Shown here: piece by piece, positions 23,901-51,012 of the stretch
Layout of the letters: every line of letters begins with the position of its first letter
Numbering within the stretch: the stretch's first letter is position 1
Origin: Rhizophagus irregularis
Taxonomy: Eukaryota
Length of the DNA: 64,000 bases
Assembly (NCBI RefSeq): GCF_026210795.1
Contig: NC_089430.1
Coordinates: forward strand, 5,952,001 to 6,016,000
Direction: 5' to 3'
Program-made: the position numbers and the translations under genes
The notes under the pieces: generated by a model
What the model was told of the DNA's origin: nothing
What the model saw: only the letters and a program-made list of their open reading frames with translations
The model's database searches: none

Positions 23901-24305
23901 TTATCGTTTCTTTTTGTATCATGAAAAAGAACAAAAATTAAATTAAAAATGTAAAAACAAATAACTCACATTTGTCTATGAAAATTTTAATTGTTAGGAT
24001 AATGATTAAGAATAAATACTTGATGCATAAAAAAAATACCATTTTGAATATCCTTTATGATTTTTATGCAATGAAGTAGATCGTCCTTTTCCATTAAAAG
24101 GAACGTATTGCCGCATCGGCAAGTGCATTGTTACAATTTCCTTTTTTGGGAATGGGTGACAAGTATACGTACGCATGTTACATTTTCCATATCAGTTCAA
24201 CTATCATATAATAGCTTGGGAAAAAATCGACTCTCAAAATTGTATTTTAACACCTCTAGCAAAAACAGTGTAACCCGCTCTTTTGAATCCTAAAAATTCA
24301 CCAAT

Positions 24306-27300
24306 ATGACTAGTGAAGAAAGGACTTTAGAGGAGTTATTAAGAGAAATTCTACGACTTAATTATGATAAGCCTAAAATTTGTGATTTAGTAAATGAAGG
24401 AATTTTGAGCGTTCAAGTAAATAAAGTTATGAAAGCTTTTGAAAATGATTCGGAAGTTTTTCCACAAGGAAATGAAATTAAGCATTGGAATAAAGTGAAT
24501 ATACGAAATTGGGCAGATTCTATAAAAGGAACAGAAATTACAAAGAATCCAGAGTTTTTAGAAGAAATGATAGCAGTTCTTAAGAGGACAAATTTCCTTT
24601 ATTGTAAGCATAATCTGAGAATAACACAAGTTTTAGCTATATTACTCTTTGTGTCACCAAATGAACAAGGAAGATTGTTACAAATATCAACAGGAGAAGG
24701 AAAGACTACCATATGTGCTATGCTCGCAAGTATTAAGGTATTGCAAGGAGAGAATGTGGATATAATAACAAGTTCCCCTATTTTAGCGAAAAGAGATGCT
24801 GAAGAGAGAGAAAGTTTCTATAAAATATTAGGAATCAGTTGTGGGTCTAATGAAGGCGAAGACTATTCATTAAGCATAGTAGATGGTCGTAATGGAATTC
24901 AATTAGAAACAAATAAGAACTGCTATTTTAAAAATATAGTATATGGGGATGTAAGCGAATTTCAGTTTGATTGGCTAAAACATGAACATAAGAAAATAGG
25001 TACTAAAGGAAATAGAGGGTTTGGTGTAGTAATTGTAGATGAAGTAGATACCATGATAATTGATGACTGTAGCAGGAGTGCAAGGTTAACAGGAGAACTG
25101 GCAGGGTTTGAATATTTAAATCCAGTATTTTGTGGGGTAGCAAATGAGTTAACTAGATTAAGCAAGCGAATAATACGGACAGAAGAGAATTTAATATATT
25201 TAGATGGTGAGTTCAAAGAAGGAGGAGAACTTATCTTAGGAGAAGAGATAAAATGCTATGAAATAAATAATTGGTATGAATTTATCTCTGAATATTTAAC
25301 AGAATTTACAATAAATATAATAAAAAAAAGGAAAATAGAACTGCCAGATTTTTTAAGAGATTTTTGTTTAAAGTCAGTAGAAGAGTTTGTTAAATCAGCA
25401 ATTGAAAGTTGGAATGTATATCAAGAGAAGATAGAATATCTAACAGTAAAAGGTAAAAATGAAAACTCGAATATTGCACCAGTTGACTATGAAAGCACGG
25501 GAATAGTGCAAGAGAATGAGACATTTTCTGATGGATTGCATCAATTTCTGCAGATAAAGCATGGGCTCAAACTTACACCTGAATCAGTAGCTACAAGCTT
25601 TGTTTCAAATATGGGATATTTTAAAAATATGGTGCTAAGATATATGGGTTAACAGGAACAATTGGATCTAAGGAGGACCAAGATATGTTATCCTCAATTT
25701 ATACAGTAGATTTTGGATTTATGCCAACATATAAAGCAAAAAAATTTAAAGAGTTAGAAGGGATAGTGACCAGTAATAAGAATGCATGGATTATGGAAGT
25801 AGTGAGTAATATAAAGCAAGAAGGAGAAAGAGGAAGAGCAGTACTAGTTATTTGCGAGACAATAGATAATGTAAAAACAATTTATGATATTCTAATAGAA
25901 GTTTATTCAACAAGGAAAATAAGGTTATATTCTAGAAATGATAATGATGAATGTTCAGCAGTAAAAGAAAGAGTTAACTCAGGAGATGTAATAATTGCAA
26001 CAAATTTAGCAGGAAGAGGAACAGATATCAAAACAAGTTTTAGCGTTGAAAAGAATGGAGGTTTACATGTAATAGTTACTTTTTTACCATCAAACTCAAG
26101 GGTAGAGGAACAAGCATTTGGGAAAACAGCAAGACAAGGAGCAAAAGGAACAGCCCAATTAATAATTAATAAAATATATACAGAAAACAAATTAAATATG
26201 ACTGGAATTTTAAGTAATATATATGAATTTAAGCAACTTAGAGATAGTAAAGAATATATAAGAATACAAACAGTTAAATTATATAAGGCAAAAGAAGTTG
26301 AATTAAGAGATAAATTATTTGAAATATATTTAGAGGTTGATAATGATTTACGAGAGATAGAAGAAAATAAGAAGAAAGAAAAGACGATATTAGACATATT
26401 AGAAAAAGATAAGAGATATAAATATAAATTACTGCAAGTAGAAGAAAAATGGGGATTAGAGCTAAAAATATTTGAAAAAACATTAGCTTATGATAGCAAA
26501 ACAAGAGAAGAACTAAAACAAGTAGCGAAAAAATTTGGATTTAAACCATATGGTAATAATGAAGCAATGTTTAGTTTATATAAGGCAATTAGTGTAAGTT
26601 TAGGAAATAAAGCAAGTAGTGAGCAGTTGCTATGGCTAGCAGTAGGTTATTTTTTAGATAATTTTACTGGAATGTATTACCGTAATGATATTAATTTTTA
26701 TAAAAAAGCTGCAAAAAGTTTTAGTGATAAAAAGGCATTAAAAAGTTTGACTTCAGTATTAGGAAGAAATATAGTAATAATAAGTAGCAATCAAGAAAAT
26801 TTGATGATTTACAAAATAAAGGATGTGAAAGAAACGATTTATATAGGTTTAGAAGATGGAAATAAAAAATATTTTAAAAATTATAGACCTTTAAGAAAAG
26901 TTTCGTATAATTATGATATAATAGAAAAGTATTCAATAAAAGTAGAAGTAAAAGCTACTGAGTATAAAAGTATTACAAATCTTTTTGAAAGAAAAGATTT
27001 AAAAAAATTGATAGATGAAATTATAAAACAAAAGTCAAAAGAAGTAGAAGAATGCAATCTAGCAAAAAGAAATGAGGGAATTAGTTATTTTAAAAATTTC
27101 TTTAATAAAATAAAAGAAGAATATAAAACAGGCAATAAAATAATGAAAAACTCAGCATATATGGTACAAATGGGAATTGAAAAGTCAGAAGTCAAAGAAA
27201 AAATAGATATATTAGAAGGTGCATGTAATTTAGAAAAAATATATTCATTGCCAGCACGTTATAATTTAGCTCATGCAGTAATTGAAGAACAGAAAGGAAA

Positions 27301-38659: not shown

Positions 38660-41600
38660 TTTCGAAGGTATACATATACCTTCAAATTTTCACTTCTTTT
38701 AACAAAACGTTTCACTAATGTTTTCGTTTTTTTCTTTTTTAGATTCAAGACACCCATTTAAAAGGCTCGAATGGGCTTCTAAAGTACAGAAACCCCAAAG
38801 ATTCCTAAGTACGAATTCTTTGGAGTTTTTTTTTATATTTTTAATATGAACGGTTACTAACCATTTTTTTTTTACTTTTTTTTTAGATTTGGCTATTTGG
38901 GTGGGTTTCCGAAGTATAGAACCCCCAAAGATTCGTAAGTACAAATTCTTTGGAGTTTTTTTTTATATTTTTAATATGAACGGTTACTAACCATTTTTTT
39001 TTACTTTTTTTTTAGATTTGGCTGTTTGGGTGGGTTTCCGAAGTATAGAAACCCCAAAGATTTGTAAGTACGAATTCTTTGGAGTTTTTTTTTTATATTT
39101 TTAATATGAACGGTTACTAACCATTCTTTTTTTACTTTTTTTTTAGGTTCGGCTGTTCGGGTGGGCTTCCGAAATATAGAAACTCCAAAGATTTGTAAGT
39201 ACGAATTCTTTGAAGTTTTTTTTATATTTTTAATATGAACAGTTACTAACTGTTCTTTTTTTACTTTTTTTTTAGGTTCAGCCGTTCAGGTAGGCTTTTG
39301 AAGTATAGAAACCCCAAAGATTCGTAAGTACAAATTCTTTGGAGTTTTTTTTTATATTTTTAATATGAACGGTTAATACTAACCATTCTTTTTTATTTTT
39401 CTTTTTTAGGTTCGGCTTTCAAGTGACTTCTGAAAAATGGAAAAAACCAAGTTTCGTAAGTTCGAAACTTGGTTATTTTTTTTGTTTATTTTTAATATTA
39501 TGAACAGTTATTAATAACCGTTCTTTTTCTTTTTTTTTTTTAGGATCGGATGTTCGAAGGACGGAAAAATTCCAAGATTCGTAAGAATCTTGGATTTTTT
39601 TTATTTTTTTTAAAAAAAATATTATGAACGGTTACTAATAAAGCTCCGAACAGGTCGGTTTGGTCCGAATTATAGACGGTTTGGATTAGAGCCAAAATCC
39701 GTAAGAACCGAACTGAAAAACTGGCAGTTCGGTTCAATTTAATCCGATTTTTATAAAAATGCGAAAAATCAAATAGCCGGCCATCTAGTGATCGTATAAA
39801 GTCGAGCCATATTTCATTGGATTCGTCTCGATGAGACGCGACGAATGGTGCTAAGATCATGTCTCTAGCATCGATAGATCACACGTTAATCCACGCTAAA
39901 TGATTTATAAATAATTGGAATTAGCAAGCTATCTATCGGTGCTAGAGACATGATCTTAGCACCATTCGACGCGTCTCAGTGAGACGAATCCAATGAATAT
40001 AAATTCGTTCATGTACGACTACTGGATGGCGAATAATATCAAGTTTAGCATTTTTTAAAAAATTTCGAGCATTAAAAATTAAAAATTCCGATACATGAAT
40101 TTATTCGTCGTCCAATGGTCGTACAAATATGAATTATGACTCATTGGATTCGTCTTGATGAGACGAGTCGAATAGTGGTGAGATCATGTCTCTAGCATTA
40201 ATAGATCGTAAGTTAATTCACGCTAAATAATTTATAAAAAATTGGCATTAGCAAGCTTCTATCGATGCTAGAGACGTGATCTTGCCACCATTCGACTCGT
40301 CTTATCGAGACGAATCCAATGAGTCCTAATTCATATTTGTACGACCATTGGATGACGAATAAATTCATGTATCGGAATTTTTAATTTTTAACGCTCGAAA
40401 TTTTTAAAAAAATGCGAAACTTGATATTATTCGCCATCCAGTAGTCGTACACGAACGAATTTATATTCATTGGATTTGTCTCACTGAGACGCGTCGAATG
40501 GTGCTAAGATCATGTCTCTAGCACCGATAGATAGCTTGCTAATTCCAATTATTTATAAATCATTTAGCGTGGGTTAACGTGTGATATATCAATGCTAGAG
40601 ACATGATCTTAGCACCATTCATCGCGTCTCATCGAGACGAATCCAATGATATATGGCTCGACTTTGTACGATCACTAGATGGACGGCTATTCAATTTTTC
40701 GCATTTTTATAAAAAATCGGATTAAACTGAACCGAACCGCCAGTTTTTTGGTTCTAATACCCGAACTGAACCGAACCGAATTTTGAGCCAGTTTCGGATT
40801 GGTTCCCTGGTTTAGCCCGAACCGTTCGGAGTTTTAGTTACTAATAACCGTTCTTTTATTTTTTATAGATTCGGGTAGACTTCCGTGTTCTGAAGAACGG
40901 GAAAATTCCAAAGATTCGTAAGAATCTTGGATTTTTTTTTTATTTTTTTTTAAAAAAATATTATGAACGGTTACTAATAACCATTCTTTTCTATTTTTTA
41001 GGATCTAGTGGACTTCCAAAGAAAGGAAAACCAAGAAATCAAGATTAATAAGTAAGTACGAATCTTGGTTTAATTTTTTTGTTTTTTTTTTAATATATGA
41101 ACGGTTCTAACCGTTCTTTTCTTTTTTTTTAGGATCTGGTGGGCTTCCAAAGAATGAAAACCCAAAGATTCGTAAGTACGAATCTTTAATTTTTGGTTTT
41201 ATTTATTATTATTACGAATGGTTTACTAACCATTCTTTCTTTTTTTTTATAGATTCGGATGGGCTTCTGAAGAACGAAAACCCAAAGATTCGTAAGTACG
41301 AATCTTCAATTTTTTTTTTATTTATTATTATTACGAATGGTTTACTAACCATTCTTTCTTTTTTTTTATAGGTTCTGGTGGGCTTCCGAAGAATGAAAAT
41401 CCAAAGATAAAGATTCGTAAATACGAATCTTTATATATTTTTTATTTTTATTTTTTTATTATTTTGGAACGGTTTACTAACCGTTCCTTTCTTTTTTTAT
41501 AGGTTTGGGCGGGCTTTTGTGTGAAAAAACCAAGATTCGTAAGTACGAATCTTGGTTTAATTTTTTTAATTTTTTTTTTAATATTAATGAACGGTTACTA

Positions 41601-42200
41601 ATAACCGTTCTTTTTTTTTAGGATCGGGTGGAGTGGACTTCTGACCTTCGGGAAAAGAAGAACCAAGATTCGTAAGTACAAATCTTGGTTTATTTTTTTT
41701 GATTTTTTTTTTTTAATATTAATGAACAGTTACTAATAACCGTTCTTTCTTTTTTTTTAGGCTTTGGGTTGGCTTCTGATCTTTGGAAAAGTGAAACCAA
41801 GATTCGTAAATATAAATCTTGGTTTATTTTTTTTGATTTTTTTTTTTTAATATTAATAAACGGTTACTAATAACCGTTCTTTCTTTTTTTTTAGGCTTTG
41901 GGTTGGCTTCCGATCTTCAGAAAAGTGGAACCAAGATTCGTAAGTACGAATCTTAGTTTATTTTTTTTGATTTTTTTTTTAATATTATTATGAACAGTTA
42001 CTAATAACCGTTCTTTTCTTTTCTTTTTAGGTCTCAGGTGTCTCAGGTGGCTTCTGAAGAACGAAAAAAACCAAAGATTCGTAAGTAAGTACGAATCTTG
42101 GTTTTTTTTCTTATTTTTTTAATATTATAAACGGTTACTAACCGTTCTTCTTTTTTTTTATAGGTTCAGGTGGATTGCTAAAGAACAATCAAAGATTCGT
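38660..42200 (+). repeat. Tandem array of ~18 mini-exon (mostly 36-50 nt) + intron (~75-90 nt) units
   Basis: Repeating ttttag|exon...aagattc|gtaagt...tactaac...ttttag with ~120-135 bp period. Confidence 0.88.
39639..40836. mobile_element. hAT-type non-autonomous element containing a ~1-kb palindrome
   Basis: TIR taaagctccgaac / gttcggagtttta; perfect 8-bp TSD gttactaa. Confidence 0.85.
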
Positions 42201-43228
42201 ATATACGAATACATGAATCATGTAATTGTGGAATTGTATTTGAATTAGCAATATTTTTTGTAAATTAGATAGATAATGCAATAATAATAATATAATTATA
42301 AAGTATTTAAGCATTAATAAATACATTTATTTAATAAATTTGATAAAAAAATCAAAATAAATTCATAAATAGATGGGTTGTTATTAGACCATAATTCGGC
42401 TTAAAGTTTTAATGTCGAATATTGGTCAATTTAAACCTGAATAATGGTTGAATAATTTGTCCAAATTTGGGACGATTGGCACCCTAAATGCGTCCAAAAA
42501 TTTGACCTCAATTTGACACAGATTAGATCATCATTTGACCTATATTCGACCTGGTCAAATTTAAGTCAAATTGTTCTTTTTCGACTAGTGTAGTTTTTCA
42601 AATGTTAAGGTTCATTTTTTACCACCAAATACAACATCATTTCTTCAACCATTAGATCAAGGTATTATTTATAGTTTAAAAGCACAATATCGCAAATTGC
42701 TATGTCAAAATCATATTCAAGCTTATGATTTTTATGAAGAGGGAGACCCCATTCCACCCCCAATTAATATTTTTGATTCAATCAGTTTAATTGCTGATGC
42801 CTGGAAAAAAGTATCTAAAAAAACAATTCTTAACAGTTGGGCTAAAGCTGAAATCCTTCCCAATAATATGGAAGATTCTGAATATTCAGACAATTCCGAT
42901 TATGAAGAAGATAATATGGACATGAATTACAATTATTAATTGATGAGTTAGGATTCATAGATCCTTTAGCTATGAATGACTATATTAATATTGATAATAG
43001 AGCATCTGCTGAAGAGAAATTATCATTACAAGAAATTGTTGACGTTGTAAAGGGAACAAATGAAAGGGAAATTGAAGAGGAAAAGAAGCAAGATGAAATC
43101 TCTACAATAGTTGCGTTAAATAGCATTGAAAATGTAATTAAATATATTCAACAAAAAGATTTAGAAATTGGTAATTTAGAAATGAAAAATTTAATTAAAT
43201 TGAAAAAAAGGATCTTTTTTGATAATAT

Positions 43229-43940
43229 GGTGTCGGAACTCTATACTCAAAAATAAAATTGTGATAATTATAAATCTTTCAACACTTTAATAAAATAAAA
43301 TTTCAAAGAAATAAACTGGTAACTTTGTTCTACAAGACAAGTACTATTAAATTACCGGTCAGATTTTCAAAAAAATATCTACATAAAAAGTTATAAGCGT
43401 TTGAAATTTGGTTATTTTTATATGATTGGCCCAAATTTGAAACAAAAAGTCACATAAATGCATTTATTTTATGAGAATTTACATAATTTGTATTGACATT
43501 TAATTATTTTAAGGCTTAAAATGGCTTAAAATGTCCTTAATTTACTTAAAAATCTAAATTTAACTCCATTTTAGCTTGATTGTTCTTAAATAAATACTAC
43601 TTTCTATACTTATCAGTGGAATTGAATTTTTGAATTATGACAGACGTAATTAAAATGCCGCAATTCACCGTAATTATATATTTTATTAGTAAACATTTGT
43701 ACTGACGTAATTATTTTTGGCTATGCCGTAATATTTTGACATTGACTTTTTAATTCTACTGAGAAATATACTAGAAATATACTACTTTCTGCTTTATTCT
43801 TAAGCCGATTTCCTTTTTTTTCCTTTTTTGTATATGCTCGTATCTGTTTTTTCTAAAATTGTGAATTTTTATTGGTTATTGTACTTCTCACGTAATAAAT
43901 TAAAAATTTGAAACATTTTTGAGTATAGAGTTCTGGCACC
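43229..43940. mobile_element. MITE with 4-bp ATAT TSD (Sola-like)
   Basis: TIR ggtgtcggaactctatactcaaaa / ttttgagtatagagttctggcacc; removing it plus 4 bp restores the pogo frame. Confidence 0.85.
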
Positions 43941-44909
43941 ATATAAATGAAAAAAGGCAAAGTAAACTAAATGAATATTTTGATTTTAATGTATGACAGA
44001 TAGTTCTTTTATAATAATAAAATTATATTCATTTTTGAATAAAATTTTGAAAATTTTGAACAAAAAATCACGTGATTTCTTGGTATTTTGGATTTTTCAT
44101 ATATTTTTATATAAATCCGGTTTGGCAAGATTTTTTCGATATATCGGATGTCTTGATATATCGGATATTTTTACTGGAACTAACTGATCTGATTTATCAA
44201 AATTGCCTGTGTATTTATGTTTAAAGTTGAGATACAAATTTTTAATATATATAGTAAGTGCTAAGAATTATATTAATTTAAAAGAAATATTTACCAACTT
44301 ATAGTATAATAACATTAAATAAAAGTTTTTTAATACTCAGTTACTCCTAATTTACTGTATATTATATAGTATTTTGTATAATAAAAATGTAATAAAATCA
44401 ATATTTTAATTAAAGATAGACAAATCAGCCCATATGAGTACAATACATTTTCATATATATGCAATATATGTAACTTATTAACTAATATTTATACAAGTTA
44501 TGTAAATTTATTTATTATATATTATAAAAGAAAATTATATATTAAAAGGATTACGCAAATTATTTTTAAATATAAATTCTAATTTCTATTTAGCATTAAT
44601 ATTTTCTGCTAGATGTTTCAATATCTTTAACATTTATATCACTAAAATCTTTTTTACTTTCACTATATTCATCATGTTTACCATCATACTCATTATCTTC
44701 ATTTTGCTGTAGTTTTTCTAACCATTCATTTAAATGATCATTAAATTGAAAATTCAAATTTTCTTTTAAATCTATACTATTTTGATCATTATTAAGATCA
44801 TTATCATTTAATTCTTCATTTTGTAAATATTTTTCATTTTCATTTTTATTTCATTTTCATTATCATTTTATTTTTATTTTTATTTTTGGTTATTATTATT
44901 AGTAGATTC

Positions 44910-45471
44910 TAGTGCTCCGTACGAGCCAATCCAGCTCGAGCCAGCTCACGAGCCAGGTATATCAAGCTGAGCTGAGCCGTGGCTCATAATAAATTTGGCT
45001 CAGCTCATTCAAGCTGAACTTTGATACAGCTCGTTCGAGTTAGCTCGCGAGTTATGAGCTAGTTCGCGAGCTCCAGAACTTTTTTTCTTTATTATTGCCG
45101 GCATCACGTGATTTTTAATTTTGGCCAGAATTAAGTGATCAACATGGAAATTTCCTTTTTTAGAATCCTGTGCAATGCATTTCCCCATTTTTGATAAGAA
45201 ATAAAATTGCCTTTTGGATTGTATAACGTTACTCAGGTGTTCAAAAAAGGAAATTTCCATATCAATTATTTAATTCCGGCCAAATTAAAAAAATCACGAG
45301 AAATATGCAGAATTTGATAAAAGCTCAGTTCAGCTCGAGCTAAGCCACCTTAAAACTCAGCTCGGCTCGACTCGAGGTTGGCTCAATACAAGCCAAGCTC
45401 GAAAATTCTAATCGAACCGAGCCTGCTCAAATTTTAGCTCGGCTCGCTAAGCCGACTCGTGCGGAGCTTTA
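44910..45471. mobile_element. hAT-type MITE
   Basis: TIR tagtgctccgtacgag / ctcgtgcggagcttta; TSD gtagattc/gtaaattc; gagct/gctcg subterminal repeats. Confidence 0.82.
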
Positions 45472-45905
45472 GTAAATTCTTGTTGATCATTATTATATCG
45501 ATTATAGTTATAGATGCTGTCAGAATTATTTTTACGGTTATAGCATATGCCGTAATGCTATAATTAAATGCCATAAATCGTAAATACCGTGATGCTGTAA
45601 TGCCATAATGCCGTAATTTAATTTAACGCCGTAATGTTGTAAATAAATATGCTGTAAATGAATAAGACTAAACTTAATTTCAGCTAAGTTCGCAATGCTG
45701 GATCAATTTTTTTTCATGTTTTATCACGTGACATTACACGGATTTCAAAAAAATGAAATTTTGTCCCTCAATAAAATTGAATAATGAGTTGCACAAAGTT
45801 ACACAAGATTCCAAAAAAGAAAATATTCATATCAATCATTTAGCATTTGTAAAGGTCATGTGATCGTGATTAATTATAACCTGATACCTCATCATTCGAC
45901 CAGTA

Positions 45906-48330
45906 GTTTAGTAACGTTTCTTAAAGAATATAATAAAAAAATCTACTCCCTAACCTCCTTTTTTACCTAAATTCCAAAGTCCAGTTCGTATTATTTGTCT
46001 GGCAACCTAAAAAAAAGAAAGAGAAGCGTTAGAACGTTTCTCTTAAAAAAAAATATTATTCCTCCTCTCCTTCACTTTACATAATTCCAAAGTCTGGTTT
46101 GTAGTTTTCGTCCAGCAACCTAAAAAAGAAGCATTTAGTAATGTAATAAAATAAAAAAAACCCACTTCCTGACTCCTCTTTTACCTAAATTCCAAAGTCT
46201 GGTTCGTATTATTCGTCTGGCAACCTAAAAAAAAGAAAGAGAAGCGTTAGAACATTTCTCTTAAAAAAATAAAATATTATTCTTCCTCTCCTTCACTTAC
46301 ATAATTCCAAAGTCCAGGTCGTATTATTCGTCTGGCAACCTAAAAAAAAGAAAAAGAGAAGCGTTAGAACGTTTCTCTTAAAAAAAAATATGTTATCCCA
46401 GTTTGTAGATATGATATTGACCGATTGATGATCAATTTCTTTTCCTGCAATTTGTGTCATTCGTGAATTGGGTGAGATGTGATCCGTAATCTAGATCAGG
46501 ATAATCTGATTTGGAAAAAAAAATTTCTTTTTTGTGAACAAAAAAAATTGCCGGACTTTGAGAATTGAAGTAAGAGAGGAGTTTTTCGTTGTTTTTTTTT
46601 AATAAATTAAACTAATTTATTTTTCTCTTTTGTAGGGTTACTGAATGAAAACTAGACTCTTGGAATTGAGGTAAGGGAGGGCTGAGGGAGAAGGTTTTTC
46701 GTTTTTTTTTAATATATTTTTTTCTTTTTTGTAGTGTTGCCAGATGAAAAATATTGCCGGACTTTTGGAATTGAAGTAAGAGAAGGCTGAGGGAAAGCTT
46801 TTTCATTGTTTTTTTAATAAATTAAACTAATTTGTTTTTTTCTTTTTTATAGAGTTGCCAGACGAAAACATTGCCAGATCTTTGGAATTGAAGTAAAAAA
46901 GGGCTGAGGGAAAGCTTTTTCATTGTTTTTTAATAAATTAAACTAATTTATTTTTTTCTGTTTGATAGGGTTGCCAGACAAAAAACATTGCCGGACTTTT
47001 GGAATTAAGGTAAGGGAAGGTCGGGAAAAGGATTTCATGATTTTTTTTTTTAAATAATTTAATTTATGGTTTTTCTTTTTTTAAGGTTAGCCAGACAAAA
47101 AATATGATCAGATTTTTGGAATTGAGGTAAAGGAGGACTGAGCAGAATCTACTTTTTTGTAGAGTTGCTGGATGAAAATATACTAGTGTTTCGTTCCTTT
47201 AAACTAATTTGAATCTTGATGAAAAATAGAGTTGTTTCTTTTCTAAGCAGATCCAAGGCATTGGAAAGTTTGGCTGGAACCTGGAATTTTTTAGACGTTT
47301 CTGGATCATTGATTTCGGTGGAACAGAGCAATTTTTTTTTTTAAAAAAAATTTTTTTATAACGAAATGCTTACTAACGTTTCAATTTTTTTTTTTATAGT
47401 TGAAGTATTCAAATTCGGTGAGCATTGTTTTTTATCTTTAATTCTTTTAATGAATAATCCCTAAAGGTTTATTCTTTTTTTTTCTTCTGTAGACGGCTGG
47501 TGCTTTGGAACATTTGGATGCATGTGAATCGGTAAGGAAGGTTTTTTGAATAATGAAGCGATACGGTTACTAATTATTTCATTTTTTTTTTTGTAGATAG
47601 TGATATTGGAATTCGGTGAATTTATTATTCAAAATATATTGTGAAGGCAATTGGATGATGATTATCTAACGAAGATTATGTTATAGAGTCTTTGAACAAA
47701 AAAATTTAAAGGTTCTTAAGATCTCCTTAAACGTAAGTATCGTTATGTTTATTTTTTTTTAAAAAAAAAATAATCTTTTTTAATGAATCGTTTATTAAAA
47801 TGTTTCGTTTATTTCATTTTTATAGACGACCAATTCTTCATTATCTTTGGACATGGATTTTGGTAAGGGGTGAATATTCTTGGATTATTTATTTAATTAA
47901 ATAATTACTAATGTTTGTTTGTTTAAAAATCTTTTAGACAGCTCTTCTACTCTTTAAACGTGGGAATTTGGTGAGTGTGATGTTTCTTTTAATTTTTTAT
48001 TCTATCTTTTAAAGGACATTAACTAATTTCTTTTTTTTAGATGGTTTGTTTCTTAGCTCTTTGGACGTGAAATTCGATGAGAACATTCCTTTAACAAGAC
48101 GTTTTGTATTCCAGGTCTTTAGATGAGTGAAAACTTTCGTAGGGATTAGGCCATCGAATATAAATCTACTCCACTTTTCCAACACTTTTGCCGTCTTTTC
48201 CATTCCTTTTCCATCCCTTTCCACACTTTCGTCTCCCCTTTTCCATTCTTTTTTCATTTCCATTTCTTTTATCTTTTTTAGATGACTTCTCAGCCCTTTG
48301 GATATGGCATTCTGGTAAGTTTTGTAATGG
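45906..48330. repeat. Second, divergently oriented mini-exon/intron arrays (minus 45906-46390, plus 46530-48330)
   Basis: ag|gttgccagac...ggactttggaattta g|gtaa units on both strands with ctaac/ctaat branch sites. Confidence 0.7.
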
Positions 48331-48657: not shown

Positions 48658-51012
48658 CACTGGTCGAATGATGAGGTATCAGGTTATAAGCTATCATGAT
48701 GTATCGGTCAAATAGGACCCCGAACAATATATATAAAGGTAGGTTTTGAGTTTGCTTAACCAACATATAAAAATTTTTCCTATGTGAGATTTATTATTGC
48801 TTATTTGATACCATAATTTTTAAATAGTCAGATATAATTATGCGTAGCAGAGTATTAAATTATTAATAGTCAGATATATATTTGCGTAGCAGGATAGATT
48901 TTTTTAATATATATATATAATATAATATATATTTACATTTTTCACATTAAAAAAATTTAATAAAATATGTAAACAAAGTTATAAACATGTTTGTGTAAAA
49001 AAAATTTACTATTTTTAATACAAAGAATAAGTTAATTGTATACGTAATACAGGAATCATTTTTAGACGTGATTGTGTAACGTGTTTTTGATAAAACAAAT
49101 ACGCGTCCGCGTAACATTAAAATTATAAATTATATACGCGTCCATGTAACAGTAAAAAAATATATATTAAAAATGAGAGCAAGAAAAATAAGTGTTTTTC
49201 TGTTTTTTTATAATTTTACACTATAATTTTTGTAATAATCAGTAAAAGTTATTTCATTTTTACTTAGAAAATTTTTTAAAAATATTTTTTTTGACAAATT
49301 TTACAGTAAATTTTAAAAATAAAAATTCCGCGTATTGGTGGCGTTACAAAAAACATGAATAAATCCATAAATATCTATTCAATCGTGATAAAAATTTATA
49401 TGTAAGTAGATTCGAACCTGCTGAACAACTTTACTTAAGAAGGTTTTGGATGTTTCCTTTGACTAAAGTGCCTAAATTACGCTCTGAAGTCACAGAACAG
49501 ATATACGAAATATTAATAAGAAACATTTATAAGTTGTAATATTACAAAAAAATAATAATAGCTTTATCCATACTTTATTTCAAAAATTTTTGTTTTTTTA
49601 GTTTTTTTTATATACATATTTTATAAAAAAAATTATATATAAATATATATATGTCATAAAATAAATTGCTTAGCAGTGTAAAAAATTTATGGGTTAGATA
49701 AAAGTTTGCTTAGCAGACATGAAAAATATTTGCTTATTGACCTTAGTAAATTTTGAATTTTTTATCTGACCTATATATATATTGTTCGGGGTCCTGGTCA
49801 AATATCAGAAATCTGATATGGCATGATAGGTATATTGGTATCCGATATTATTTATAAAATTATATCAGAAAATTTTAATATACCTATCAGTAATCCGATA
49901 GGTTATTGATATTTCTAAAAAACAATTGATTCATATCAGGAAAAGATTGACTCAAATTGAATGATTATCTGATTATTTTTTTCCAGAAACGAATTACAAA
50001 AAAAATAAACTCTTTCATGTAACATTTTATTTTTTTTTTCCAACAAAAAGTATCATTTATATTTTAAGAAACAATGACTGAACGGTCAGTCTTTCAGTAG
50101 ACTTATAGGAATGCAAGAAGTGCAGAAGGTTAATATATTTTTTGTTTTTTTTTTCTTTTTCTTTTTTCTTTATTTTTTTCACCTTATTCTTATTTCTTTA
50201 GGGATGAGTCTTTTCTCTTGGAATGGCGATTTTGGTAACTACTGAGAATGCAAAAGATGCAGAAGGTTAATATATTTCTTTTTTTTTCATTTTTTTTTTT
50301 AATTTTATTGTTTTTTTCTTTACTTATTTAATTCTTATTTCTTTAGGAATGGGTCTCTTCTCTTGGAATGGCAATTTGGTGATTTCTAAAAATGTAAAAG
50401 ACGCGAAAAGTTAGTACTTAGTATATTTTTTTCATTTTCATTTTAATTTTATTGTTTTTTTCTTTACTTACCTAATTCTTATTTCTTTAGGAACAGGTCT
50501 CTTCTCTTGGAACGGCAATTTTGGTAATTTCTAAGAATGTGAAAGATGCGGAAAGTTAGTATATTTTTTTCATTTTCTTTTTTTAATTTTATTGTTTTTT
50601 CTTTACTTACCTAATTCTTATTTCTTTAGGAACGGGTCTCTTCTTTCGGGATAGTGATTGGGAATAGAGGTAAATGTGAAGTGGCTGTGTGTAGGTCAGT
50701 GTATTTATTGTAATTAAGAGACGTTCTCTTCTTTTTGTAGAACATTATTAATCAAGCAATTTAGACTCAGATTGATTCGACTCATCAACTCGTTTTGGAG
50801 CACTACTGCTTCAGTTCTGATTTTTGGGTTTGGATATATAGGTGAGTTTTGAAGAGAACTTTAAAAAATTTTTTTTAAAAAAATTTATTTAACTTTTTTT
50901 TCTTTTATTTTGTAGGTTTCAGCTTCAGTTTTTGGGTGTTGGATAGGTGAGCGAAGCTTTGAAATTTTAAAAACCTTATTTTTTTTTAAAGTTTATTTAA
51001 TTTTTTTTCTTT
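48658..51012 (+). mobile_element. Left part of a CACTA-type element with a third mini-exon/intron array (50040-51010)
   Basis: Begins cactggtcgaatgatgaggtatcaggttata (inverted copy at 45876-45905); repeats tctttag|gaa..gtctcttctcttggaa...gcggaa|gttagt. Confidence 0.65.
48714..49795. mobile_element. Non-autonomous AGGACCC-TIR (P-like) element
   Basis: TIR aggaccccgaacaatatatata / tatatatattgttcggggtcct; perfect 8-bp TSD ggtcaaat. Confidence 0.88.

Follow-up and report, generated by a model that had tools for sequence, protein, structure and literature searches.

The element and its neighbourhood

A non-autonomous CACTA-type element of 4291 bp (about 4.3 kb) lies on the forward strand at 38300–42590 of the 64-kb stretch of the Rhizophagus irregularis genome that was analysed (the window, from whose first letter all positions are counted). 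Its host is the pseudogene of a pogo/Tigger-type transposase, the DDE_1 domain of which is broken at the insertion point (Table 1). Alignment of both ends gave perfect terminal inverted repeats (TIRs) of 15 bp that begin with CACTA, and a 3-bp target duplication, TAG, flanks the element at 38297–99 and 42591–93. These are the features by which the excerpted text of PMC8978399 describes CACTA elements, and they place the element in the CACTA/CMC-EnSpm group; together with the split host pseudogene they bear out the original prediction, made from the sequence of this locus, of an intron array carried by a transposon. One 8-mer, a candidate subterminal repeat, occurs five times near the two element ends. 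Neither a transposase ORF nor a captured gene was found in the element, which is called non-autonomous because no stop-free frame inside it is longer than 112 aa; it would be mobilised by a transposase encoded elsewhere in the genome. The observed/expected ratio of CpG is 1.4–1.7 in the array as compared with 0.26 in the host pseudogene. An assembly artefact was ruled out by the presence of related arrays at four other loci (L001–L004) and in sequencing reads.

Table 1. Features of the element and of its host pseudogene, in window positions
Feature	Position	Strand	Basis
Host pogo/Tigger-type transposase pseudogene, 5' part	37374–38299	+	PF03221 and PF03184 (profile positions 4–93)
Left terminal inverted repeat	38300–38314	+	Alignment of both element ends
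Pyrimidine-rich leader, likely first exon	38500–38667	+	90% C+T; gene models P0010, P0011 and P0014 take it as their first exon
Intron 1, unrelated in sequence to the repeat unit, predicted hairpins over donor and branch point	38668–38742	+	
Left array part: exons of 62, 48 (four times), 46 and 37 nt; donor 38805 mutated	38743–39638	+	Colinear with L003
Foldback insertion, MITE-like, nested inverted arms of 458 nt at 95%	39639–40836	.	Located in the branch point of intron 8
Right array part: 11 exons of 35–50 nt; donor 41048 mutated	40837–42198	+	Covered by RNA reads from family copies; X24 has loose ends that join exons here
3' tail with three AATAAA, likely transcript end	42199–42360	+	Motif positions; RNA depth falls beyond 42320
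Right terminal inverted repeat	42576–42590	-	Alignment of both element ends
Host transposase pseudogene, 3' part	42591–43256	+	PF03184 (profile positions 100–177)

The window contains further arrays of this general kind. Two mini-exon/intron arrays stand back to back at 45930–46400 (reverse strand) and 46540–48050 (forward strand), with exon sequence in common, different introns and branch-point palindromes in both, and are bracketed by inverted repeats of 42 nt at 45863–45904 and 48659–48700. A fourth array, with a unit of 144 nt and without splice-site hairpins, occupies 50100–51000 on the forward strand. More short elements with inverted ends are found at 43215–43954, 44911–45470 and 48714–49795, and the broken ORFs at 51795–53556 (reverse strand), none of whose three pieces has a Pfam match, carry what we take to be a motif of CACTA-type transposases. 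The forward strand also holds an intronless amidohydrolase gene (PF01979) at 6196–7683, presumably resembling guanine deaminase, and two long intronless ORFs of 452 and 1102 aa at 24294–28933 with what we assume to be SecA-like helicase motifs.

Anatomy of the intron array

Some 18 tandem units had been predicted between 38660 and 42200, and 18 introns do lie within 38668–42163. Seventeen of them measure 75–91 nt, while intron 8 (39581–40868) reaches 1288 nt because a foldback of 1198 bp was inserted into its branch point. This foldback of 1.2 kb makes up one third of the predicted range, in which it had gone unmentioned, and is flanked by an 8-bp target duplication at 39631–38 and 40837–44; the sister copy L003 is colinear with the window copy and has no foldback. 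As an observation in its own right, the foldback consists of nested palindromes made from a 326-nt unit, which would give long dsRNA if transcribed, and its Rfam scores are weak, miRNA-precursor-like and far below the cut-off.

The array introns have the GT donor, branch point, pyrimidine tract and AG of U2 introns. Near-consensus signals had been expected throughout, and this holds for the 3' end, where TAG is present in 18/18 introns, but not for every donor: GT is found at the homologous position in 16/18, the donors at 38805 (CT) and 41048 (AT) being dead. A spare GT lies 4 nt beyond the latter, and RNA reads of other family copies have intact letters at 41047–48. Because two of the 18 donors are dead, the foldback sits in a branch point and L003 lacks it, the foldback of the window is read as a later insertion and the window copy as a decayed member of its family.

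The exons measure 62, 48 (four times), 46, 37, 49, 46, 39, 39, 45, 36, 50, 45, 45, 50 and 35 nt, of which the ninth, listed at 46 nt, would be 50 nt if measured to the spare GT. The 15 lengths given originally were right, with three exons omitted. The leader is as rich in pyrimidines as had been claimed, and the tail as rich in AATAAA (at 42316, 42333 and 42356). The array likely arose by tandem duplication of one exon–intron unit; as its units descend from that one unit, they are not independent observations.

Relatives of the array

Metagenome contigs were scanned with an exact match of 22 nt, which led to the loci L001–L004, and all four contain related arrays at 70–80% identity. Locus L002 has the last exon and the start of the tail in common with the window element (81% over 85 nt) but ends in CAGTG, and the array of L004 runs on into unrelated introns. 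Because of this different end and this continuation, the array seems, as far as partial contigs allow it to be followed, to be a module common to several subfamilies. All units seen in the window and in L001–L004, which are few loci, sit in arrays. The proposed amplification of introns holds for tandem duplication inside the element and for nothing beyond it. Genome contigs yielded five bacterial 18-mer matches without extended similarity (best 26 nt), and viral contigs yielded none. At the protein level, a search with an unspliced frame of 86 aa gave ten matches, all named R. irregularis, and one of them, the gene model P0010, matched 149 protein clusters when used as query, of which the 120 listed all stand under R. 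irregularis names. Parts of the stretch occur in 20 public sequencing runs from seven studies.

Coding potential of the spliced product

No single ORF had been expected to run through the array, and in the spliced RNA as predicted the best frame indeed ends after 129 codons. A lysine-rich repeat protein encoded by the spliced exons could draw on this open frame, and on the fact that one reading of the exon core is the commonest in the annotated gene models (333 of 619 motifs, a share biased by the search query), yet the exon structure does not favour it: the length of 8/18 exons is not divisible by three, and the 48-nt units differ in phase from the 39-nt ones. The 120 annotated products use the three possible readings of the exon core 333, 191 and 95 times; the frame changes between 52% of neighbouring motifs, and 63 different N-termini and 54 C-termini are present. 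None of the 11 gene models tested reaches the Pfam cut-off. Such a repeat protein is therefore a very remote prospect, and a conserved protein was ruled out by the use of all three frames, the absence of shared termini and the Pfam result. Among known non-coding RNAs, including snoRNA hosts and miRNAs, none of 18 Rfam matches reaches the gathering score.

The spliced product is thus probably non-coding, as had been proposed, all three frames being in use, and the annotated ‘hypothetical protein’ models look like paths taken by gene predictors through a non-coding exon array. This explains a block of orphan gene models, namely the 149 R. irregularis protein clusters that match array exons. Because so many clusters match, and because some models splice array exons into other ORFs, the family inflates counts of orphan genes and may donate exons. 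The models in question, P0070, P0072, P0095, P0096, P0099, P0103 and P0105, splice array exons to unrelated ORFs, internally or at an end, a possible case of exon donation.

Transcription and splicing

RNA was examined over 40845–42600, which covers the right half of the array, in three raw-read runs selected by their species label: X24, which is presumed to be RNA, and X21 and X22, which are poly(A) runs. A contig run, X15, was taken as DNA. The three RNA runs gave 2426, 2984 and 627 reads, drawn from 24–30% of each run, and show that family copies are transcribed. Only 37/2426, 77/2984 and 8/627 of these reads are at least 99% alike to the window copy, for which reason they are assigned to other copies of the family.

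The clearest signs of splicing come from X24, where three of the six loose ends listed run from the end of an exon straight into the start of an exon, without an intervening pyrimidine tract (at 41378, 41415 and 41638, with 62, 65 and 43 reads and an agreement of 0.97–1.0), and a fourth, at 41365, is suggestive of such a join. The high agreement suggests that these ends come from one or two expressed loci. Read depth in X24 tracks the exon share (rho 0.51, p 0.014, 23 bins), with a depth ratio of 4.1 between exon-rich and intron-only bins, while X15 has 0/6 exon-to-exon ends, a rho of -0.17 and an exon to intron ratio of 0.58. A satellite without splicing was ruled out by the exon-to-exon reads of X24. 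In X21 and X22 the exon to intron ratios are 1.18 and 1.14, which amounts to nearly as much intron as exon; none of the ten loose ends listed for these two runs is a clear exon–exon join, and two lead from intron to exon. Over all runs, 22 of 824 loose ends were listed, and no adjacent GT..AG joint is among the 15 joints listed of 195, which come mostly from contigs. Mates spread evenly over both strands, so the libraries look unstranded and the intron depth may therefore be antisense or read-through from dead copies. In each of the three RNA runs, depth drops below 2 past 42320, at the AATAAA cluster.

Splicing thus occurs in some copies of the family; it is clear in one of three RNA runs, from copies other than that of the window. 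The heavily spliced RNA of the original prediction is to this extent present at three places in X24 and has no clear counterpart among the loose ends listed for X21 and X22. The intron-rich depth of the poly(A) runs would also suit an array that acts as a source of siRNA against its own family, with hairpins that would hold up spliceosomes and so supply RNAi. In Cryptococcus, siRNA is triggered by spliceosomes that have stalled (PMC6643885), and half of the sRNA loci of R. irregularis match TEs according to the accessible part of PMC8647823. For a selfish element there would be little gain in this, and the foldback of the window copy is a simpler origin of dsRNA, which makes such a role highly improbable.

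Hairpins over the splice signals

The hairpins claimed for donor and branch point are present, as all four array units that were folded form two local hairpins each (z -2.8 to -4.5), while units taken from two of the window's other arrays fold at z +0.8 and -0.7. The predicted donor hairpin pairs about ten bases of the exon end (-10 to -1) plus G+1 and U+2, and the second hairpin has the branch point in its loop or next to it. Stems were tallied over the window and L001–L004, with one bulged base allowed in 7/40 donor stems and with five rows dropped: for the donor, L001:745 (mis-anchored) as well as window:42199 and L002:697 (terminal sites that no intron follows), and for the branch point, window:40895 and L003:519 (exon sequence).

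Covariation of the stems had been put forward as a check. The 40 donor stems have no single-sided and five double changes in 240 non-CpG pairs. All five lie at one pair, which changes from A-T to T-A four times and to G-C once, and 35/40 stems are unchanged at the non-CpG pairs; the CpG pair of the donor stem has ten single changes and one double. In the 41 branch-point stems, the 246 non-CpG pairs include seven with a single-sided change, and the 82 CpG pairs include 13 with a single and five with a double change. By comparison, exon cores differ at 51/403 non-CpG positions (12.7%, from 31 of 41 exons), and TAG is kept in 41/41 units (17 from the window and 24 from L001–L004). Because the units share descent, the stem counts overstate the number of events; there are at least two independent non-CpG double changes.

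The stems stay while the spacers between their arms vary, from 4 to 16 nt in the donor loop and from 2 to 13 nt at the branch point, with minimal spacers of 1–2 nt also cited. This variation, above all that of the donor spacers, is unlike a dimeric binding site and disfavours the rigid palindromic protein-binding DNA site that had been suggested. A broader form of this idea has the palindromes bound, as DNA, by an element-encoded anti-silencing factor of the TnpA or VANC type, the array being a binding platform that overlaps the splice signals by chance. The arms are conserved at the sequence level, the array is rich in CpG and VANC has tandem non-coding targets in VANDAL elements (PMC10398659, in its excerpted text), all of which would suit a platform. 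However, the centring of the palindromes on splice signals would go unexplained and there is no candidate protein, so that a platform of this kind is quite improbable.

Single-sided stem changes comprise 8 G-U and 21 A-C, which is no preference for G-U, and most of them are CpG decay. In the donor hairpin of L002:945 the loop is inverted and the donor spoiled, which is a signature of template switching; homogenised arms and inverted spacers are known products of this process (PMC8604942). Such a process at the DNA level can by itself produce double changes. DNA template switching therefore also acts on these stems, given the lack of a G-U bias and the inverted loop. It could be the whole explanation if the array is a neutral relic, in which a captured or element-derived unit was amplified by slippage, the palindromes were made and kept by template switching, and splicing is a by-product without benefit. 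The minimal spacers, too short for RNA loops, fit such a history, as do a neighbourhood rich in palindromes, the decay of the window copy and the tandem repeats known from CACTA elements (PMC8978399, in the part cited above). Against this, what is kept in 35/40 donor stems is the sequence and not symmetry alone, while exon cores diverge; TAG is invariant, and the palindromes sit on the splice signals of several unrelated introns. A neutral origin of the whole arrangement thus appears unlikely, though it deserves to be taken seriously.

Intron 1 is one of these unrelated introns, and the same design had been claimed for it. Both hairpins are there, but only that of the donor is unusual: it is equalled by 26/1610 background windows, and the branch-point hairpin, which taken alone is not unusual, by 168/1610. 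In three unrelated introns of L004, a hairpin covers the donor or follows it directly. Branch-point stems of at least 8 pairs are present in 2/4 and 3/10 introns of the two neighbouring arrays as compared with 6/263 background sites; the background in these comparisons consists of windows and sites rather than introns of host genes, and its 44 donor-like sites are mostly chance motifs. Hairpin-free arrays exist as well, as the array at 50100–50650 has such branch-point hairpins in 0/4 introns.

The predicted hairpins would probably slow splicing, and a role for them at the RNA level has about even chances.

A model of the array as a transcribed unit

Taken together, the evidence tips us slightly towards a non-autonomous CACTA-type intron array whose family RNA is spliced and probably non-coding, with predicted hairpins that would make its splicing slow and partial. 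In this model the donor hairpin, which includes the exon end and the first two intron bases, would compete with the binding of U1, and the hairpins would slow the recognition of splice sites, which fits the mixture of spliced and intron-containing RNA. Active master copies would keep their splice signals and stems through selection, and with them a spliceable non-coding transcription unit, while one exon–intron unit multiplies in tandem. Inserted copies such as that of the window would decay through CpG deamination and further insertions. We consider it probable that a transposase acting in trans moves the element and that selection has kept splice signals and stems in the master copies.

The benefit that selection would act on may be gene mimicry, in which an intron-dense, spliceosome-loaded transcript would maintain the transcription of the master copies and hold down their CG methylation. 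In other organisms introns can shield transcripts from silencing. The CpG-rich array fits such mimicry but also fits youth of the array; as the benefit, mimicry is a tentative and rather unlikely proposal. The more general proposal that non-autonomous DNA transposons of Rhizophagus repeatedly evolved hairpin-masked tandem intron arrays for self-mimicry, in which a non-coding transcript would load many spliceosomes at a rate set by its structure and so escape both CG methylation and RNAi, is speculative and, on balance, doubtful. If true, it would be a third route by which transposons counter silencing, one that needs no protein of their own.

Regardless of the benefit, the family is a natural multi-copy test bed for the interplay of splicing and silencing: copies that are intact, that have dead donors or that are interrupted by a foldback occur together in one fungus, for which methylome, small-RNA and long-read data are public. 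The family is also a clear case of a transposon moving many introns that had arisen by tandem duplication.

Comparison with known systems

R. irregularis has many CMC and Plavaka elements, which are also expressed, and 24% of its genome consists of unclassified repeats (PMC8647823 and PMC11075540). A hairpin-masked intron array in a transposon has no description in the literature searched; TE libraries and supplements may contain the family. In the main texts of PMC8647823 and PMC11075540, neither ‘intron’ nor ‘splic’ occurs, and such arrays are undescribed in the excerpts of PMC11952901 and PMC10234402.

Among non-autonomous CACTA/CMC-EnSpm elements, including Plavaka, the likeness lies in the CACTA TIR and the 3-bp duplication, and CACTA elements of plants also have internal tandem repeats (PMC8978399, same excerpt). 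In contrast to these, the tandem unit here is an exon plus an intron with hairpins on both splice signals, and the element has neither transposase nor captured gene. SmTRC1 and maize Spm are likewise of the CACTA type and produce numerous transcripts by alternative splicing, some of them from truncated copies (PMC1636069). However, their exons contain ORFs and do not repeat a single unit, and the text drawn on reports no splice-site hairpins.

In the intron gain by tandem duplication described in the accessible part of PMC4974935, new introns likewise inherit their signals from a duplicated exon–intron boundary, but this was one event in a host gene, whereas the present array comprises 17 copies in a mobile, probably non-coding element. 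Introner-like elements and the symmetrical sister (stw)introns of Hypoxylaceae also form families, made up of fungal introns that resemble one another and are strongly structured (PMC8469720). These introns enter genes one at a time, at new positions, and their two ends pair with each other, while the introns here stand in tandem with a local hairpin for each signal. VANDAL elements, too, are DNA transposons with non-coding tandem repeats and a possible anti-silencing role through VANC; there the repeats are protein-binding DNA motifs, according to the available portion of PMC10398659, whereas here they are spliced units. Precedents thus exist for parts of the arrangement, namely CACTA transcripts that are spliced (PMC1636069), introns gained through tandem duplication (PMC4974935) and structured introns that proliferate (PMC8469720).
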